In this document: positions 3,706 through 64,000 of the stretch, piece after piece
How the letters are laid out: each line of letters starts with the position of its first letter
Numbering within the stretch: the stretch's first letter is position 1
NCBI GenBank assembly: GCA_016932555.1
Contig: JAFGCQ010000004.1
Span: forward strand, 990 to 64,989
Direction: 5' to 3'
DNA: 64,000 nt
Origin: Candidatus Zambryskiibacteriota bacterium
GTDB lineage: Bacteria; Patescibacteriota; Minisyncoccia; Phycocordibacterales; WO2-35-19
Made by a program: the position numbers and the translations under genes
The notes under the pieces: generated by a model
Told to the model about the DNA's origin: nothing
Seen by the model: the letters and a program-made list of their open reading frames with translations, nothing else
The model's database searches: none

Positions 3706-3862
3706 GGGCGGGATTTCACGACCCTGGCTCGCCTGTTTTGATTGCTATCAAAACATAGCTGTGCCTTTCAAGTCACCAACGCAAGCCAGAGCAGTCTGGC
3801 TTGCTTCTGTTCCGAGCATAGACACAAAAATCACTAGCAGAAACTAGTGATTTTTGGTCTTG

Positions 3863-3937: not shown

Positions 3938-4052
3938 ATTTTTATATATTTTTCAAAAATCTCTCTTTTCCTTTTTAGAAATAATTTTGAAAAACCTATC
4001 CTATTATACATAAAATCATAGAGTTTTAAAGACCCTATGCTATAATTTAAAC

Positions 4053-4256
4053 ATGCAACCAGAAGAACAAAATAAAATAGCCGAACTAGAGGCTAAGATT
4101 GACGCAATTTATAAGTCAGTCGAGAAAACTCGTAAAATAATGCTTTGGACGAGCATAATTACTGCAGCAGTCATCATTTTGCCACTAATCGGGCTCTTAT
4201 TCGTGATACCTTCGTTTATAGATTCTTACACTACTGCTCTAGACGGCCTTCTGTAA
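4053..4256 (+). CDS. Small single-pass membrane protein
   Basis: ORF with one clear hydrophobic helix; no recognised family. Confidence 0.4.
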   Translation: MQPEEQNKIAELEAKIDAIYKSVEKTRKIMLWTSIITAAVIILPLIGLLFVIPSFIDSYTTALDGLL

Positions 4257-4787: not shown

Positions 4788-4845
4788 CCGCGTAAAAGAA
4801 TTGCTGCGCAATTCTCACGCGGCTGCGCCAGCAAGCCGAGTGAAC

Positions 4846-4875
4846 AAAAACACCCATGTTGGGTGTTTTTGTTTT
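4846..4875 (+). terminator. Rho-independent terminator ending the tRNA-like transcription unit
   Basis: AAAAACACCC-ATGTT-GGGTGTTTTT followed by GTTTT. Confidence 0.65.
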
Positions 4876-5609: not shown

Positions 5610-7079
5610 TTAAGTTGTCTCTCCCAGAAAATTTTTGCCAATTTCGAATAAAACATTTTCATTGCCATGAGCAGACATAAGTTGTATGCCAATCGGCAGA
5701 TCTTTGTCATTTATTTTAGCAAATCCAGACGGGATCGAAATAGCGGGTATGCCGGCGATATTAGCTGTAACCGTAAAAATATCAGCCAGATAATTTTCTA
5801 AGGGGCTAGTTTTTTCTCCTATCTTCCAGGCTGGTGTCGGAGCCGTCGGAGTTAAAACTACATTTACTTCATTAAAAGCTTTATTGAATTCATTCTTAAT
5901 AACTTCTCTAGCTGCCATAGCTTTGCCATAATAAGCGTCATAATAGCCGGCTGAGAGCACGTAGGTGCCAAGTATAATCCGCCTTCGTACTTCCGGACCT
6001 AAGCCTTCACCCCTAGTTTTTTTGTAAACTTCCATCAGATTACTTGTCCTGAGCGGAGTCGAAGGGTTGCCGTCCAAAGATAAACCGTATTTGATACCAT
6101 CATATCTGGCCATATTTGATGAGACTTCTGCCGGCATAATTATGTAATAAATAGTGAGTGATTTGTCTATATTTGGTAGTTTAATATCTTTAATTTCAAA
6201 ACCCAAATTTTTTAATTTTTCTACTGATTCTTCAAAATTTTCTTTCACTTCTCTCGAAATACCATCCTGCTCAAGTAAATGATAAGGCACGCCGATTCTT
6301 AAATCCCGAGATGAATCTTGGAGTGACCCGACCGATTTGCCGTCATGGCGGACAGGAATATGCGAAGTGCTATCATACTTGTCCTGACCTTTTATAACAT
6401 TAAAAATTATTTCAGCATCAGCAACTGATTTAGTGATAGGTCCTATTACATCAAGAGATGACCCCATGGCCATAAGGCCATAGCGAGATACGCTGCCGTA
6501 AGTTGGCTTCAACCCTACACAGCCACAAAAGCTGGCTGGTTCCCTGATTGAACCACCCGTATCCGATCCTAAGGCTCCTAGAGCCATATTAGCCGCTACA
6601 GCGGCCGCAGAGCCACCAGAAGAGCCACCAGCTACTTTTTCCGGATCATGGGGATTTCTGGTCACTCCAAACGCTGAATTCTCGGTAGAGCCACCCATAG
6701 CGAATTCATCCATATTGGTTCTGCCTATAAATATTCCATTTTGTTCAAGAATTTTCTTCGCTGCAGTAGCTGTGTATGTCGCTTTGTAATTTTCTAAAAT
6801 CTTAGAAGCAGCGCTGGCCTTCTTGCCTTTTATTAAAATATTATCCTTTATAGCTAAAGGTATACCGGTTAAATCTTTGGAATCGCCTTGATCAATGATT
6901 TTTTGAGCCAATTTGGCTTGCTCTAAAATATCATCATAAACTTCCAAATAAATATTAAGTTCTTTATTTTTATCTTCAATCTGCAGAAGGGCACCTTCTG
7001 TAAGTTCTTTAGCCGAAATCTCTTTGCTATCTAGCAATTTTCTCGCTTCTTTAATTGTCAAATCTTCTATTTGTGTCAT
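5610..7079 (-). CDS. gatA: Asp/Glu-tRNA(Asn/Gln) amidotransferase subunit A
   Basis: Amidase signature GGSSGGSAAAVA and full-length GatA-like sequence, followed by gatC. Confidence 0.9.
   Translation of the reverse strand: MTQIEDLTIKEARKLLDSKEISAKELTEGALLQIEDKNKELNIYLEVYDDILEQAKLAQKIIDQGDSKDLTGIPLAIKDNILIKGKKASAASKILENYKATYTATAAKKILEQNGIFIGRTNMDEFAMGGSTENSAFGVTRNPHDPEKVAGGSSGGSAAAVAANMALGALGSDTGGSIREPASFCGCVGLKPTYGSVSRYGLMAMGSSLDVIGPITKSVADAEIIFNVIKGQDKYDSTSHIPVRHDGKSVGSLQDSSRDLRIGVPYHLLEQDGISREVKENFEESVEKLKNLGFEIKDIKLPNIDKSLTIYYIIMPAEVSSNMARYDGIKYGLSLDGNPSTPLRTSNLMEVYKKTRGEGLGPEVRRRIILGTYVLSAGYYDAYYGKAMAAREVIKNEFNKAFNEVNVVLTPTAPTPAWKIGEKTSPLENYLADIFTVTANIAGIPAISIPSGFAKINDKDLPIGIQLMSAHGNENVLFEIGKNFLGETT
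6036..6065 (+). repeat. GC-rich short repeat, in-frame copy inside gatA (encodes PSTPLRTSN)
   Basis: Matches 2478-2507. Local GC island in an AT-rich gene. Confidence 0.7.
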
Positions 7080-7415: not shown

Positions 7416-10052
<2,637 letters not shown>

Positions 10053-23211: not shown

Positions 23212-23433
23212 TTAATTTTTAATTCTTTTAACATTTGATACATGTATCGGTGCGGCTTGATCAACTATTTTACCTTTTTCGTTACTCTTTTTTCTGCGTT
23301 GATGAACTTTTTTAATATTTATTCCTTCAATTAAAACCATGTCTGATTTAGGAAAGGCGCGTAAAATTATACCAGATTTACCTTTATCCTTACCAGTTAA
23401 TACTTTTACTTTATCTCCTTTTTTTACATGCAT
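23212..23433 (-). CDS. rplX: 50S ribosomal protein L24
   Basis: [19 protein letters not shown] motif. Confidence 0.85.
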
Positions 23434-23437
23434 ACTC

Positions 23438-23537
23438 TCGAATATTACGAATAAGATCGAATAATACGAATCCTATTTTTGCTATTAATTTGATTGTTCT
23501 TTATTTGTAGCATTCGATTAAATTTGTGGTTATTCGC
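23438..23537 (-). repeat. 100-nt intergenic element, copy A (between rplN and rplX)
   Basis: 99/100 identical to 33287-33386. Contains four CGAAT motifs about 9-10 nt apart. Confidence 0.9.
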
Positions 23538-32142: not shown

Positions 32143-32208
32143 GAGAAACCTCCAATGAAAATAAAGATCAAAATTCCTTTTAAATTTTTAGCATACTACC
32201 CAAAAAAC

Positions 32209-32240
32209 AAAAAGACTTGTAGAAAAGTCTTTTTGTTTTG
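32209..32240 (-). terminator. Bidirectional terminator after rplK
   Basis: AAAAGACTT/AAGTCTTTT stem flanked by A-runs and T-runs. Confidence 0.65.
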
Positions 32241-32736: not shown

Positions 32737-33282
32737 TTATATCTTCTTTACCTGCAAAAAGTCAAGCTCTACTGGAGTTTCGCGACCAAACATTGGGACC
32801 AAAACTTTAACCTTACCTTGTTCTTCATTAACTTCACCCACCTTGCCTTCCAAATCTTTAAAGGGTCCATCTATAATCCTTACTGATTCATCAAGAGAAA
32901 GATCAATATTATGTTTTACTTTATCAGAATGCATCCTGTTAAATAGCTCCTCTATTTCTTTTTTATCCAAAGGTACCGGAAAAACTCCAGCGCCAACAAA
33001 TCCTGTTACTCGAGGAGTGTTTCGAACCACATACCAAGAATCATCAGTTACAATCATATCTACCAGTACATAACCTGGATAAATTTTTTCTTCCTCTTCA
33101 ACTCGTTTATTACCCTTTATCTTGATCTTTTTTTCAGTTGGGACAATAACATCAAAAATTTTATCCTCCATACCCAAAGATTCTATGCGCTGTTTTAGAT
33201 TTCTCATTACAGCATTTTCATAACCAGAATAAGTATGAACAGCATACCAATTTCTTTCGCTTCTTATTTGTTGTTTGCTCAT
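32737..33282 (-). CDS. nusG: Transcription antitermination factor NusG
   Basis: [17 protein letters not shown] domain and C-terminal KOW. Confidence 0.9.
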
Positions 33283-33286
33283 ATGA

Positions 33287-33386
33287 TCGAATATTACGAA
33301 TAAGATCGAATGATACGAATCCTATTTTTGCTATTAATTTGATTGTTCTTTATTTGTAGCATTCGATTAAATTTGTGGTTATTCGC
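33287..33386 (-). repeat. 100-nt intergenic element, copy B (between secE and nusG)
   Basis: 99/100 identical to 23438-23537, same orientation relative to the operon. Confidence 0.9.
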
Positions 33387-43346: not shown

Positions 43347-43366
43347 GCTACAAATTTCCACAAATT

Positions 43367-43385
43367 AGATCGAATGATACGAATA
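43367..43385 (-). repeat. Fragment of the CGAAT element in the rpsJ-rplC spacer
   Basis: AGATCGAATGATACGAAT is an 18-nt exact match to 33303-33320. Further CGAAT/ATTCG motifs run to about 43430. Confidence 0.7.
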
Positions 43386-43460
43386 AAGACTTTTTTATTC
43401 GCGCGAATAAAAAATGCCGCTCGGCTCCGAATAAATTAACAAATATTCCGTTAAATTGCA

Positions 43461-49497: not shown

Positions 49498-49514
49498 ACA
49501 AAATAAAAAACCGA

Positions 49515-49543
49515 AAAAACCCCGTAATTCCCGGGGTTTTTTG
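49515..49543 (+). terminator. Rho-independent terminator
   Basis: AAAAACCCCG/CGGGGTTTTT stem with T-run. Confidence 0.7.
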
Positions 49544-57305: not shown

Positions 57306-57656
57306 ATGACAAGAGTTCATAATATCCGCAAACTTTCAGATCGCAGGAAAGAATTACGAAAAAACCAAACAAAAACCGAAGAAAAACTCTGGTGGTATTT
57401 GAAAGATAAGAGGCTGGGAATTAAATTCAGAAGACAGCACAGTATAGGAGGATATATTTTAGATTTTATATGCAAAGAAAAGAAATTGATTATAGAAATT
57501 GATGGTAGAGTACATTTGAAAAAAGATAATAAAGAATACGATAAAGTTAGAGACAAATATTTTGAAGAGTTAAATTATAAAGTTCTGAGATTTACGAATG
57601 ATGAGGTTGAAAATGGGGTTAAAGAGATTATTGATGTTATAAAGCGGTATCTTTAA
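57306..57656 (+). CDS. DUF559 (Vsr-like) endonuclease-domain protein
   Basis: TEEKLWWYLK...FRRQHSIGGYILDF...IEIDG..H...D..RD..L...GY.VLRF pattern. Confidence 0.8.
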   Translation: MTRVHNIRKLSDRRKELRKNQTKTEEKLWWYLKDKRLGIKFRRQHSIGGYILDFICKEKKLIIEIDGRVHLKKDNKEYDKVRDKYFEELNYKVLRFTNDEVENGVKEIIDVIKRYL

Positions 57657-57702
57657 CCCCCACCCCTCAATTCGTGTAGCCCTTCTCTTGATCAGGGGAG
57701 GG
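57657..57702 (-). repeat. Family B GC-rich element, inverted copy
   Basis: Its reverse complement aligns along the whole length of 58407-58451 (about 80 percent by eye). Confidence 0.75.
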
Positions 57703-57724
57703 AAAACCAAAATCATACAAAAAG

Positions 57725-57748
57725 AAAACCGCCATTCAGCGGTTTTCG
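57725..57748. terminator. Bidirectional terminator between convergent genes
   Basis: AAAACCGC-CATTCA-GCGGTTTT with T-runs on both strands. Confidence 0.6.
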
Positions 57749-57770: not shown

Positions 57771-58322
57771 TTATATCAAAATCCTCCCATTATACTCATG
57801 GAACCCGATTTCTCCACTGGTAGCCGTGAAAAAAATATGCTCCATTCCAGCAAAATTTTCGAATCCGCCCCCGAGAAAAATAGTGTTTTCATACTTAAGA
57901 AGGTTTTTATCATAGTTTCCTACACGAGTATCATTATAAAAACCGTGTGTAGCTAAACCTCGTCCACCATGGAATTCACGTTGTTTGTAGGCGTAATTAA
58001 GCGCCATTTTCAAAAAACTGATCACTTCCTTAGGATAACATCCAGAATAAGACATCCACCACACGGCCATCCATCTTCCTCTGGGTCTGAACCTATAAAA
58101 GATAGTGGTTGTACCGGCGGAAAAATCTGAAAGCGGTGTCACACAATAGTGATCTACCACTTTGTAGTTACCGGATACAAAAGTGATTCTTTTGTATCCG
58201 CTAGATTCTATGACTTTAACAGAATTCTTTTTGTTTCCAGCATATCCGTCAAGCATAGCATCGAAGAATACTTTTTCTGCTTTTTGAATGATTTTCTTTC
58301 TCTGTTTGGACTCTAGTTCCAC
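57771..58322 (-). CDS. Hypothetical protein, DUF5680-like (tentative)
   Basis: Pattern ...AMLDGYAGN...W.MSYSG....EVISFLK.AL...FHGGRG recalls DUF5680. From memory only. Confidence 0.4.
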   Translation of the reverse strand: MELESKQRKKIIQKAEKVFFDAMLDGYAGNKKNSVKVIESSGYKRITFVSGNYKVVDHYCVTPLSDFSAGTTTIFYRFRPRGRWMAVWWMSYSGCYPKEVISFLKMALNYAYKQREFHGGRGLATHGFYNDTRVGNYDKNLLKYENTIFLGGGFENFAGMEHIFFTATSGEIGFHEYNGRILI

Positions 58323-58406
58323 TGTTGGCTCCTTTCACCCATTAGGTCTGACTCAGGTTATACAACAATATAAAAATTAAAGCAAGAATAAAAAATACCG
58401 CGCGTT

Positions 58407-58451
58407 CCCTCCCCCGTCCAGGGGGAGGGCTACACGAAGTGAGGGGTGGGG
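58407..58451 (+). repeat. Family B GC-rich element abutting the secY stop codon
   Basis: CCCTCCCC-CGTCC-AGGGGGAGGG hairpin plus CTACACGAAGTGAGGGGTGGGG tail. Confidence 0.75.
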
Positions 58452-58452
58452 A

Positions 58453-59724
58453 TTAATATTCTCTTGCAGAGATTTGAGCATCAACTTTTTTAACGAGATC
58501 AAGAACCACTGAAACTACGATAAGAAGTCCTGTACCGCCTATAGCCACTGCGCTGATACCAGTAGCCGCCCTTACTATTAAAGGCAAAACAGCAATTAAT
58601 CCCAAGAAAATAGCGCCAATCATGGTTAAACGGGAAAGGATTTTGGCTATATATGAGGAAGTCGAGGAACCGGGTCGAACTCCCGGAATAAAAGCACCGC
58701 CTCTCTGTAAATTTTTGGAAAGATTCTCCGGATCAAAAGTAATAGCTGTGTAGAAATAAGTAAAAACAAAAACTAATAAGAAGTAGGCAATGCCATAAAA
58801 AATCTGGTTAGAAAGCAAAGCAAGTAGAAATTCAGAAATCTTTTGGATTATAGTATTGTCTACATTAGCTAAAAAGCGGATTATCATTTGAGGAAAAAGT
58901 AATATGGAAAGAGCAAAAATTATAGGAATCACCCCAGCTTGATTAACTCTTAAAGGTAAATAAGTGGAAACTCCACCATACATTTTATTACCTCTAACTT
59001 GTTTAGCGTAAGTTATCGGTATGGGTCTTTCTGCTTCAGTAATAACTACTACACCCCAAATCACTGCTATGGCAGCCGCCAGAAAGCCAATATACATCGG
59101 CAATTGAGATGGATCAAAAGCAAATAAAAGCTGGCTAGTCGCACTGGGTAAAATAGCAACAATGCCGGCAAAAATGATAAGCGAGACTCCGTTACCAATA
59201 CCAAATTCAGATACTAACTCACCAAGCCACATAAGAAGCATTGAACCGGCAGCAATTACTATAAGATTTGTTAGCAATTCAAAACCAGCAAGTTTACTTA
59301 AAACATTCTGATTTTGAAGAAGAATAATAAAAGCATAACCTTGCATTAAAGCTAGAGGCACAGTCAAAAATCTTGAATATTGAGAAAATTTTCTGCGTCC
59401 TAATTCACCCTCTTCTTGATACATAGCCTTGAGTTTAGGAAACATAACAGTCATAAGCTGCATAATAATAGAAGCGGTAATATATGGCGACACACCGAGC
59501 ATAATAATTGAAAGATTAGACAAACCACCACCCGAAAAGATATTTAAAAGTCCAAAGAAATCATTATCAGACATAAACTGCTCTAATTTAAAAGTATCAA
59601 TACCGGGAATTGGGATAGAGGCCATCAAACGGAAGAGAGCCAACATTACAAGGGTAAAAATTATTCTCTTTCTTAAATTTTTATCCCCTAAGACTAATTT
59701 TATTTTGTGAATAAAATTTTGCAT
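58453..59724 (-). CDS. secY: Preprotein translocase subunit SecY
   Basis: Ten-TM SecY sequence; follows rplO. Confidence 0.95.
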   Translation of the reverse strand: MQNFIHKIKLVLGDKNLRKRIIFTLVMLALFRLMASIPIPGIDTFKLEQFMSDNDFFGLLNIFSGGGLSNLSIIMLGVSPYITASIIMQLMTVMFPKLKAMYQEEGELGRRKFSQYSRFLTVPLALMQGYAFIILLQNQNVLSKLAGFELLTNLIVIAAGSMLLMWLGELVSEFGIGNGVSLIIFAGIVAILPSATSQLLFAFDPSQLPMYIGFLAAAIAVIWGVVVITEAERPIPITYAKQVRGNKMYGGVSTYLPLRVNQAGVIPIIFALSILLFPQMIIRFLANVDNTIIQKISEFLLALLSNQIFYGIAYFLLVFVFTYFYTAITFDPENLSKNLQRGGAFIPGVRPGSSTSSYIAKILSRLTMIGAIFLGLIAVLPLIVRAATGISAVAIGGTGLLIVVSVVLDLVKKVDAQISAREY

Positions 59725-62419: not shown

Positions 62420-63424
62420 TCAAGCGCTTTGCTGTCTTGAGATAACAACGAAGCGTTTACCGTGTCTATTTTTTGGAATGTTTCTATTTAGTTTTTGCAG
62501 TAGTTTAATTTTTAAATCTCTGGAACGGCAGTGATGTAAAAGACCGTTATAAGATGAGAAATTTTTGTCAGTCACCCTATTAAATATTCTTCTTTTAGTT
62601 TTAGTTCTCAAAACTCTATGGTACGGGAAGCAAATATAACCCAAATAATCGATGCCGCTGGCATATGTTTTAAGGATAATTTTTTCAGGGTGGATTTTTA
62701 GCTTCAAATTCTGCCAGCAAAAATCTCGAATCTTAGGTATGCAAGATTCCAGAAAATTTTTATCAGGATGCATCAAAACAAAATCATCAGTATATCTAAT
62801 ATAGCCCTTTACTTTTAAATCATGCTTCACGAACTGATCAAATTTGTTCATAAAAATATTGGCAAATATTTGAGAAGTCAGATTGCCAAGAGGTATGCCG
62901 CAATTGAAACTTTCAACAATGTCCTTGGTTAGGATGATAAGCTCTTTATCAAAAGTCTTTTCCTCTAATATCCGCAGAAGCTTATTATGATCGACAGATT
63001 CAAAAAACTTTCTTATATCCAACTTCAGCACCCAGATAGTTTTGCTGTTATTTCGGGAAATTTTGAGTCCTATTTTGTGGAGTCTTTTAACCGCAGCATG
63101 AGTGCCTTTATATTTTCTGGAAGACCAAGAGTCAAAGATAAATTTTTTATCCCACATTGGCTCTATGACTCTGATTATGGCATGGTGCAAAAGTCTGTCT
63201 CTAACGCTGGCTTTGTTAATGTGCCTCCTTTTGGGATCACTTATATAGAAAGAAAAATATCCGCCATGCCTGTAATTACCGCTTTTCAAATCCTCATGCA
63301 GTTTGAAAATGTTATCTTCCAAACCAAGCTCGAATTCCGCCACATCTTTCTTGCCTCGCTTATCCTTGCGAAACTCAGCCCAAGCGTCGAAGAGATTTTT
63401 TAATGAAATAATTTTTTCAAACAT
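62420..63424 (-). CDS. Diversity-generating-retroelement-type reverse transcriptase
   Basis: RT motifs 1-7 readable: DPKRRHINKASVRDRLLHH, LKLDIRKFFESVDH, GIPLGNLTSQIFANIF, YTDDFVL, GIDYLGY. Start set at MFEKIISLKNLFDAW. Confidence 0.85.
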   Translation of the reverse strand: MFEKIISLKNLFDAWAEFRKDKRGKKDVAEFELGLEDNIFKLHEDLKSGNYRHGGYFSFYISDPKRRHINKASVRDRLLHHAIIRVIEPMWDKKFIFDSWSSRKYKGTHAAVKRLHKIGLKISRNNSKTIWVLKLDIRKFFESVDHNKLLRILEEKTFDKELIILTKDIVESFNCGIPLGNLTSQIFANIFMNKFDQFVKHDLKVKGYIRYTDDFVLMHPDKNFLESCIPKIRDFCWQNLKLKIHPEKIILKTYASGIDYLGYICFPYHRVLRTKTKRRIFNRVTDKNFSSYNGLLHHCRSRDLKIKLLQKLNRNIPKNRHGKRFVVISRQQSA

Positions 63425-63808
63425 ATGAATAGAAACAACAATAATAAAACAGCGGAGCAAACACCATTCTTTCAAGCAGTTTATAAATTGTATCTATCAT
63501 GGTATGTCAGATGCGGACAACTGCCAAAGAAAGACAGGTTTACCATTGGACAGAAGACGGAAAACTTGCTTCTGGAAATTCTCCTGTTAACGGTGACTGC
63601 CTACCACACAAGCAGCTTGGATTTAAAGAGACAATCATTACTCAAAGCCAATACTACTCTTGAATGCGTTAAAATCAGCATTAGATTGGCAAAGGACATC
63701 AAAGCTCTGGAGCAGCATTGGTACATAGATTATCAGAGAAGAATCCAAGAGATGGGCAAGATGCTCGGCGGCTGGATTGCCAGCACTTACAACAAAACGG
63801 GCAAGTAA
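63425..63808 (+). CDS. avd: Avd-like four-helix-bundle accessory protein
   Basis: LPKKDRFTIGQKTENLLLEIL ... IQEMGKMLGGWI pattern; adjacent to the RT. Confidence 0.75.
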   Translation: MNRNNNNKTAEQTPFFQAVYKLYLSWYVRCGQLPKKDRFTIGQKTENLLLEILLLTVTAYHTSSLDLKRQSLLKANTTLECVKISIRLAKDIKALEQHWYIDYQRRIQEMGKMLGGWIASTYNKTGK

Positions 63809-63822
63809 TTTGCCCGTTTTGT
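63792..63822. terminator. 13-bp perfect hairpin with the avd stop codon in its loop
   Basis: ACAAAACGGGCAA-GTAAT-TTGCCCGTTTTGT. Confidence 0.6.
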
Positions 63823-63839
63823 CTGCATGAGAGCGACTT

Positions 63840-63979
63840 CGGAGGGAAACGACACCGAGATTGTCATTCCGATTGTCGGGGTTATTGCCATTGACGTTCA
63901 CGCCATTACGGTCAGCATTGCCGACATACACCAGATTGCCGTCAGAGGCGAGAGTCGTTTCTGCATCACTCCATCCGGA
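63840..63979 (-). repeat. Candidate DGR template repeat (TR; VR not excluded)
   Basis: On the RT strand: aat gct gac cgt aat ggc gtg aac gtc aat ggc aat aac ccc gac aat cgg aat gac aat ctc ggt (NADRNGVNVNGNNPDNRNDNLG). An in-frame TGA at 63980-63982 lies just upstream. Confidence 0.45.
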
Positions 63980-64000
63980 TCAAAGGCCGTAACCGGACAG

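Follow-up and report, generated by a model that had tools for sequence, protein, structure and literature searches.

The DNA analysed here is a 64,000-nt stretch of contig JAFGCQ010000004.1 from a Candidatus Zambryskiibacteriota bacterium (the window, with a G+C content of 35%), the end of which carries a diversity-generating retroelement (DGR). The reverse transcriptase (RT) gene, the accessory gene avd and a repeat rich in Asn codons lie side by side, and a perfect 13-bp hairpin with the avd stop codon in its loop stands between avd and the repeat. Comparisons with related loci identify the repeat as the non-coding template repeat (TR) of the DGR, and the hairpin as a feature that is conserved and linked to the TR within a DGR clade of the Zambryskibacteria type, rather than an accident of gene packing. 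The hairpin is most likely a bidirectional intrinsic terminator for both avd and a stand-alone TR RNA. The best explanation overall, which we consider likely, is a stand-alone TR-RNA gene on the minus strand with a terminator hairpin in an apparently intact DGR.

The locus is an ordinary DGR of a known kind, apparently intact, in a Zambryskibacteria-like genome of the candidate phyla radiation (CPR, Patescibacteria). Known precedents are DGRs in CPR bacteria, TR RNAs transcribed from a promoter of their own, and stem-loops located directly 3' of the TR. Less ordinary are the hairpin that avd and the TR RNA have in common, with a stop codon in its loop, the inverted avd at zero spacing from the RT gene and, possibly, a permuted RNA. 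The features of the locus are listed below.

62420 to 63424, minus strand: DGR RT gene, 334 aa from the ATG at 63424
63425 to 63808, plus strand: avd (accessory variability determinant), 127 aa
63792 to 63822, both strands: perfect 13-bp hairpin, with arm ACAAAACGGGCAA (63792-63804), loop GTAAT (63805-63809) and arm TTGCCCGTTTTGT (63810-63822)
63823 to 63839, minus strand: TR 3' flank of 17 nt, AAGUCGCUCUCAUGCAG in the RNA sense, the predicted partner of the leader segment UAUGAGAGAAGAACU in helix LR1
63840 to 63954, minus strand: TR of 115 nt with 25 adenines and 10 AAY codons
63961 to 63972, minus strand: 3' strand of helix LR2, GGAGUGAUGCAG, ending 6 nt upstream of the TR; its partner is the leader segment UUGCAUCGCUCU
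63955 to 64000, minus strand: 3' end of the TR-RNA leader, which runs on past the window end

The template repeat and its related loci

The RT gene product matches the Pfam family RVT_1 (E = 9.9e-25) and carries the DGR-type motif LGNLTSQ together with YTDD, the combination of domain and motifs (RVT_1, [LIV]GxxxSQ and YxDD) by which DGR RTs are recognized. Its best NCBIfam match is a group II intron RT, with a score under the model cutoff. The avd gene lies beside the RT gene, as in a DGR, and its product matches the Pfam family bAvd (PF22296, E = 2e-16, 60.9 bits against a 40-bit cutoff). The match to the NCBIfam model DivGenRetAVD has an E-value of 1.3e-18, yet its 67.2 bits fall below the 80-bit cutoff. 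The avd gene is oriented away from the RT gene and towards the TR RNA. The start codons of avd and the RT gene are placed back to back (CAT followed directly by ATG, 63422-63427) with zero intergenic DNA, and the relatives are alike in this respect.

RT-based scans of genomes and metagenomes yielded two contigs of Candidatus Zambryskibacteria metagenome-assembled genomes (MAGs) and 15 metagenome loci, and target-protein look-ups added three further loci with a similar layout. The comparison set used throughout consists of 11 distinct related loci, individual ones being designated L002, L003 and so on. RT relatives with 76-81% identity come from Candidatus Zambryskibacteria MAGs and groundwater metagenomes. 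Read in the RNA sense, the 11 loci share a layout of one to three target open reading frames (ORFs) ending in ...LGVVSLR and a stop codon, a spacer of ~75 nt, a TATAAT-like box, a non-coding leader, the TR-homologous repeat, the hairpin, avd on the opposite strand and the RT gene. The window itself was extended with a Logan contig (L001, 4.3 kb), which is identical over 3986 nt and adds 289 nt past the window end.

The window repeat is homologous to the TRs of the 11 loci. It shares the leader and the hairpin with them and keeps all ten AAY codons, which by comparison makes it a TR. After the hairpin, the minus strand has a GC-richer tract (tccctccgaagtcgctctc) and then 10 AAT/AAC codons in the frame reading ...TLASDGNLVYVGNADRNGVNVNGNNPDNRNDNLGVVSLR. 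A first-pass annotation made from the sequence alone had described this tract and codon block, along with the TGA at 63980-63982 that closes the frame upstream, and both descriptions are accurate. It had given the candidate TR a span of 63792-63979; the TR proper is contained in this span, and the remainder comprises the hairpin, the 17-nt 3' flank and ~25 nt of upstream leader. Minus-strand stops are present upstream of the repeat in all three frames of the window and the 289-nt extension, and thus no gene reads into the repeat. Location of the repeat within a protein-coding ORF ending at 63980 or 63898 was considered and ruled out, as no ORF enters in any frame. The preference of the first-pass annotation for a TR is therefore upheld.

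The related loci contain both members of the repeat pair. Comparison of the hairpin-adjacent copy with the ORF-terminal copies, the variable repeats (VRs; 2-3 upstream VRs), placed 173 of 181 mismatches at TR adenines. The VRs close the ORFs at ...LGVVSLR and the stop codon in L002, L003 and L019, and the TR/VR homology in the relatives stops exactly at ...TTTCCCTCCG. Consistent with this, homologues of the target in the protein database vary exactly at the positions encoded by the AAY codons of the TR. A side observation concerns the sequences past this sharp boundary, where the VR 3' flank CTAGTTCTTCTCTCAT resembles the TR 3' flank AAGTCACTCTCAT (L002, L003, L004, L008 and L019). The likeness recalls the IMH/IMH* (initiation of mutagenic homing) pair of phage BPP-1.

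We give almost no weight to the view that the window repeat is itself a diversified VR, ending a target gene that enters from outside the window. The non-Asn codons interspersed among the Asn codons would suit a VR, and the window stops only 46 nt past the repeat. However, the 289-nt extension contains upstream stops in all three frames, the repeat is flanked by the conserved TR leader and TR hairpin rather than by VR flanks (CTAG or CTGA followed by a T-rich tract), and all 10 AAY codons are retained. The GAC, GGC, GTC, CGT and GCT codons, which the first-pass annotation had thought compatible with a diversified VR, form an invariant scaffold common to the TRs of the relatives.

A partner repeat is absent from the 64-kb window and the 289-nt extension, where blastn with a word size of 7, a repeat search and an adenine-ignoring scan returned the self match only. 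The adenine-linked mismatches by which the first-pass annotation proposed to tell TR from VR are those of the relatives. The window's own VR was not recovered among 43 target homologues, none of which fits the V.VG ... V.G..P scaffold demanded by the window TR. This VR lies past the available sequence. In the upstream direction, contig L001 reaches 30 nt past the -10 box of the TR RNA. The VR is expected to start near this point, and the contig end is probably an assembly break at the VR/TR repeat.

Two further observations indicate that diversification is ongoing in the relatives. The loci L006 and L007, one population sampled twice, have VRs (~4000-4085) that differ only at TR-adenine positions. 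The target variants P0001-P0006, which are 97-100% identical, differ almost only in the C-terminal stretch encoded by the VR. The 327-aa target protein matches no Pfam family. Some targets are fused to or lie beside AAA_5 ATPase and CobT_C/VWA genes (L003 5705-8089 and its neighbours; L019 and L021). Another homologue of the target protein (L020 5001-5873) is located on a phage-like contig that also encodes HNH, MT-A70 and numerous small ORFs, and no RT gene lies closer to it than 5 kb.

The hairpin between avd and the template repeat

Direct reading of 63792-63822 bears out the perfect 13-bp hairpin of the first-pass annotation, with the avd TAA (63806-63808) within its loop. The final five Avd codons (NKTGK) and the TAA are encoded within the hairpin of the window, and across the loci the last four to five codons make up one arm. 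Perfect hairpins of this size (arms of 13 bp or more, loops of 3-10 nt) number just four in the window, and 20 dinucleotide shuffles produced none. For the hairpin at the avd stop, the folding energy is -25.3 kcal/mol in the minus-strand sense (z = -5.9) and -23.6 kcal/mol in the plus-strand sense (z = -5.5), and 0 of 200 shuffles were as good. It begins 17 nt past the end of the TR/VR homology and 3 nt past the flank strand of LR1.

A stable hairpin follows the end of the TR/VR homology by 9-19 nt in 11 of the 11 related loci. This distance is held although the RTs are only 53-81% identical to that of the window, or not comparable with it (L021 and L022). The hairpin is hence present in all homologous DGRs, and the TR/VR mismatches there are adenine-linked; on both points the first-pass annotation stands. 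Pair counts for this and the other RNA helices were taken on MAFFT alignments. In an eight-sequence alignment, 92% of the cells in the hairpin are paired and 6 of the 13 pairs have changed on both sides, compared with 41-56% paired cells in slid controls. The stem sequences at the hairpin position are unrelated in L013, L014 and L022. The stems are perfect and 12-13 bp long, with loops of 5-9 nt, and those of the close relatives are free of bulges. Representative stems are listed below.

Window: 5' arm CGGGCAA, 3' arm UUGCCCG
L002: 5' arm CGAACGGA, 3' arm UCCGUUCG
L004 and L009: 5' arm CGAACAG, 3' arm CUGUUCG
L021: 5' arm CAAAACCAACAGG, 3' arm CCUGUUGGUUUUG
L022: 5' arm AAAGCUCGUC, 3' arm GACGAGCUUU
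L013: 5' arm CCUGCUU, 3' arm AAGCAGG

The hairpin lies at the avd stop codon in all nine relatives in which avd is adjacent, as proposed by the first-pass annotation for the window. The predicted loop contains the stop in the window and in seven of these nine; in the other two (L013 and L022) the stop is at the loop edge. The gene order differs in L002, where a Fic-domain gene and a small ORF on the opposite strand (1.4 kb) are placed between the hairpin and avd. The hairpin of L002 remains beside the TR, and the Avd has a new C-terminus, while the old TTA is still in the hairpin loop. Despite this separation, the three VRs of L002 show differences from its TR at adenines. This arrangement indicates that the hairpin belongs to the TR unit and not to avd, in agreement with the earlier proposal that it is more than an avd terminator. 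In coordinates, the insertion of L002 spans 8235-9390 and comprises the Fic/DOC-domain gene and a 146-aa ORF, which replace the last Avd codons.

After the core stem CGGGCAA/TTGCCCG, the minus strand reads TTTTGTTGT and the plus strand TTTTGTCTG. Most loci, diverged ones with unrelated stems among them, have a U-rich tail behind the stem (that of L014, where there are two hairpins, is weak), and the close relatives have an A-run in front of it. The A-run before and the U-run after the stem make the hairpin terminator-like on both strands. Hairpins of a like style, with A-runs and T-runs, stand directly after the 3' ends of genes at 3825-3856, 4843-4873, 32204-32239, 49514-49542 and 57724-57747, and look like the standard bidirectional terminators of this genome. 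The DGR hairpin resembles bidirectional Rho-independent terminators in its A-tract, GC stem and U-tract on both strands, its location between convergent units and its overlap with a stop codon. It differs from them in that one of the units is a retroelement template RNA, of which the terminator would fix the length after the template.

The leader of the template RNA and its helices

Upstream of the TR, contig L001 carries a 5' motif of the leader, GGCTAATGAAG, at the window-equivalent position 64239 and, at 64246-64251, a putative -10 box with the sequence TAGAAT. The motif, GGCU(A/C)AUG(A/C)AG, is invariant and occurs once per locus. A TATAAT-like box is placed 6-8 nt upstream of it in 10 of 12 sequences (the window and its 11 relatives). 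A consensus promoter scan of the locus gave no convincing -35/-10 pair for the TR RNA, and the -10 box was seen via the alignment only. The leader is ~220 nt long in the relatives and 285 nt long in the window genome, and its identity of 84-86% exceeds the 74-78% of the coding DNA. It matches no Rfam family; a permissive E-value gave one chance match to a miRNA (E = 0.76).

A 62-nt palindromic insertion (caCCCCGTTAGAG...CTCTAACGGGGttcac; L001 4062-4123, window-equivalent 64076-64137) occupies the tip of a length-variable helix of the leader. It is specific to the window genome, with no other copy found in the window, and may be a small mobile palindromic element. A similar palindrome, CCCCGTTAGAAG...CTTCTAACGGGG, is found between the VR and the TR promoter of L022 (~5975-6090).

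Two helices of the TR RNA show covariation. In P1, the hairpin at the 5' end of the leader, compensatory changes affect 5 of the 7 pairs, and the observed score was not matched by any of 500 shuffles. In LR2, the leader segment UUGCAUC-G-CUCU pairs with GGAG-U-GAUGC-AG just upstream of the TR; of its 11 pairs, 5 are compensatory, and 99% of the cells are paired. The LR2 helices of L013 and L014 are built from entirely different sequences, e.g. GCGUUUGAAGCU with GGCUUCAAAUGC. A third helix, LR1, is predicted by RNAalifold and by the single-sequence minimum-energy fold. It would pair the leader segment UAUGAGAG-AA-GA-A-CU with AG-UC-G-CUCUCAUG of the TR 3' flank (63826-63838). The leader strand of LR1 is directly 5' of that of LR2, and the two are separated by two nucleotides (GC). 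The two LR1 strands are complementary in every locus; in diverged loci the register is shifted, as GAAGAACU with AGUUCUUC in L012 and CACAGAGAAG with CUUCUCGUG in L021. The full 451-nt RNA of the window folds with -161.8 kcal/mol (z = -6.2), and its minimum-energy fold contains P1, LR1, LR2 and the terminal hairpin.

The proposed mechanism follows from this gene order, which in the RNA sense is the VR-ending target gene or genes (past the window), the -10 box, the leader, the TR (63954 down to 63840), the 17-nt flank, the hairpin (63822 down to 63792), avd on the opposite strand and the RT gene. The TR would be transcribed from the minus strand as a stand-alone structured RNA with its 5' end at or near GGCUAAUGAAG. 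Both the avd mRNA and the TR RNA would end at the hairpin, the latter ~50 nt past the TR. Adjacent leader segments would pair upstream (LR2) and downstream (LR1) of the TR, looping it out and presenting it to RT-Avd. The RT-Avd complex would then copy the TR RNA into adenine-mutagenised cDNA, which would rewrite the C-terminal ...LGVVSLR domain of the target proteins.

A comparable architecture is known from the ribonucleoprotein (RNP) of phage BPP-1. There, nucleotides 47-56 of the spacer pair with TR 118-129, with priming at A56, and two nucleotides on, spacer 59-70 pairs just upstream of the TR, at the stop of cis-primed reverse transcription (Handa et al., NAR 2018, PMC6182149; bioRxiv 10.1101/2023.10.23.563531). 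An 11-bp stem-loop immediately 3' of the BPP-1 TR binds Avd (bioRxiv 10.1101/2023.10.23.563531). The present DGR shares with BPP-1 the RT-Avd pair, adenine-specific differences between TR and VR (seen here in the relatives) and a stem-loop immediately 3' of the TR at the same position relative to the downstream duplex. In BPP-1, one strand with two halves 2 nt apart bridges the two TR flanks, and LR2 together with the predicted LR1 would form a bridge of the same polarity and spacing here. The TR 3' flank at 63823-63839 likewise resembles the IMH* segment of BPP-1. However, the predicted bridging strand is here ~250 nt 5' of the TR in the leader, whereas that of BPP-1 is in the 3' spacer. In addition, avd is inverted and convergent with the TR, and the 140-nt spacer after the TR would be missing if transcription stops at the hairpin.

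With the TR RNA ending at the hairpin, nothing useful would follow the TR, so that the elements of the BPP-1 3' spacer would have to be supplied by the 5' leader. This leads to a tentative proposal, possible rather than probable, of a permuted DGR RNA in this CPR clade. The transcript would be self-contained, ~390-450 nt long and end at the hairpin. The 5' leader would supply the bridging strand and presumably the RT-binding elements, and the hairpin, overlapping the avd stop, would act as both terminator and Avd handle. Priming would occur in cis from an upstream nucleotide near the invariant ACUGCUUG hinge, with the start exactly at the TR/VR homology boundary.

A separate non-coding TR RNA of 265 nt, transcribed from its own promoter, is abundant in Trichodesmium erythraeum and serves several target genes (PMC4143802). 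The TR RNA of the window would be similar in being a separate non-coding RNA with its own promoter, which is experimentally established in Trichodesmium and predicted here. In contrast, the Trichodesmium RNA is downstream of the RT gene, and no hairpin shared with avd is described for it (PMC4143802). A limited literature search found no description of this clade's leader RNA or of an avd stop in a hairpin loop. The surveys by Paul et al. 2017 and Roux et al. 2021 reportedly include DGRs in CPR bacteria. The present DGRs resemble CPR DGRs in their hosts, which are of the Parcubacteria type with small genomes, in having several neighbouring targets with a VR at the C-terminus, and in the presence of Avd.

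Alternative roles of the hairpin and the genomic neighbourhood

The terminator reading was weighed against three other roles of the hairpin. It could primarily be an RNP handle, the counterpart of the Avd-binding stem-loop of BPP-1 (Sp3-33), and an inefficient terminator, with the TR and the RT gene on one transcript that runs through antisense avd. The position of the hairpin suits this role, as the 11-bp stem-loop of BPP-1, to which all five Avd protomers bind, starts 8 nt past the primer-pairing TR segment, and the hairpin here begins 3-5 nt after the flank strand of LR1, the same relative position. Putative stem-loops just downstream of the TR are also present in 207 of 278 surveyed DGRs, CPR members included (Handa et al.). 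The RT gene without upstream intergenic DNA and the structure kept even where the sequence differs would fit as well. However, the BPP-1 stem-loop is a bulged 11-bp stem with a UNCG tetraloop, whereas the hairpin here has an A-tract and a U-tract, a perfect stem and a 5-nt loop. The hairpins of this clade share the position of the Avd-binding stem-loops of Handa et al. downstream of the TR, but not their ~9-11 bp stem with flipped-out bases and a tetraloop; their stems are perfect and of 12-13 bp, without bulged or flipped-out bases, and their loops have 5-9 nt. The U-rich tail found in most loci, including diverged ones, would be superfluous for protein binding. In L002, the hairpin is followed by 1.4 kb of opposite-strand genes, and read-through into the RT gene is implausible there. 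The perfect stem, the 5-9 nt loops and the U-tail suit a terminator better than the published Avd-binding element, and we think it rather unlikely that the hairpin is primarily a handle. The two roles are compatible and not mutually exclusive, and by analogy the terminator hairpin may also match the Avd-binding stem-loop of BPP-1.

It is improbable that the hairpin terminates avd only and owes its place by the TR, unrelated to DGR function, to the tight packing of genes in a small genome. The stop codon of avd in the loop and the like-style hairpins that seem to terminate unrelated genes of the window would agree with such a role. However, the avd of L002 lies 1.4 kb away and has a new C-terminus while the hairpin and the old TTA are still by the TR, and the TR-hairpin distance is kept at 9-19 nt across diverged loci. 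Still less probable, to the point of being remote, is a DNA hairpin or cruciform that promotes cDNA integration. The first-pass annotation had drawn this analogy from the Bordetella phage system, where a structure-dependent hairpin/cruciform beside the DGR repeat, a DNA element downstream of the VR in the target, aids retrohoming (Guo et al. 2011, PMC3240598). The present hairpin is similar to that element in being an inverted repeat a few nucleotides past a DGR repeat, with a structure that is conserved while its sequence is not. However, the BPP-1 element flanks the VR and acts on DNA, 4-34 bp downstream of the VR, with a GC-rich stem of 7-10 bp and a 4-nt GRNA loop. The present hairpin follows the TR and has 13 bp with A/T-rich ends and a 5-nt loop (GTAAT/ATTAC). 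In addition, 12 of 13 VR flanks of the relatives lack a stable hairpin. The VR flanks fold with -2.6 to -5.3 kcal/mol (0.0 for one), as compared with -18 to -21 kcal/mol for the TR flanks; the exception is one unrelated GC-rich flank. Since the hairpin follows the TR and the VR flanks do not fold, the analogy fails.

Several points weigh against a stand-alone TR RNA that ends at the hairpin and is organized by the leader helices. A consensus terminator scan of the locus did not call the hairpin at 63792-63822, because the T-run pairs with the A-run and is counted as stem; hairpins of like design at other gene ends were listed. Both the TR-RNA promoter and termination at the hairpin are predicted from sequence features. 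The abutting starts of avd and the RT gene would place each promoter inside the other gene, unless the RT is expressed via read-through from the TR RNA; with no DNA between the two genes, either the RT promoter must be inside avd or the hairpin must be read through. A weak sigma-70-like match was observed inside avd on the minus strand (63527-63499). The conservation of AAAACG in the stem could in part reflect the coding of the Avd C-terminus (K-T-N/G). The TR assignment draws on homology and on the absence of an ORF, as the window's own VR did not turn up. In LR1, 91% of the cells are paired, yet covariation is nearly absent and alternative partners exist. RNAduplex comparisons of LR1 with shuffled leaders gave z-scores of +2.2 to -1.5 in all loci except L021 (-3.2).

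For the window locus, the question of TR or VR is settled. Its clade has a compact TR RNA, probably self-terminated, whose 5' leader is tied to the TR flanks by covarying helices. Should this hold up experimentally, the architecture of the BPP-1 RNP could also be assembled with accessory RNA from the opposite side of the template, which would help to define minimal, portable DGR RNA parts for engineering and annotation. The motif GGCTAATGAAG, P1 and LR2 could be used as a search model for TRs in CPR genomes.

The neighbours of the DGR cassette vary by genome. A ribosomal-protein operon with secY is downstream of the RT gene in the window, whereas trigger factor is the neighbour in L019. Beside secY, 52-nt inverted repeats (57653-57704 and 58405-58456, 85% complementary) surround an ORF at 57771-58322 with a weak DUF5680 match, and the ORF with its flanking repeats may be a mobile insertion. 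Elsewhere in the window, two directly repeated copies of 107 nt (23431-23537 and 33280-33386) are 96% identical, and an inverted partial copy occurs at 43348-43389.

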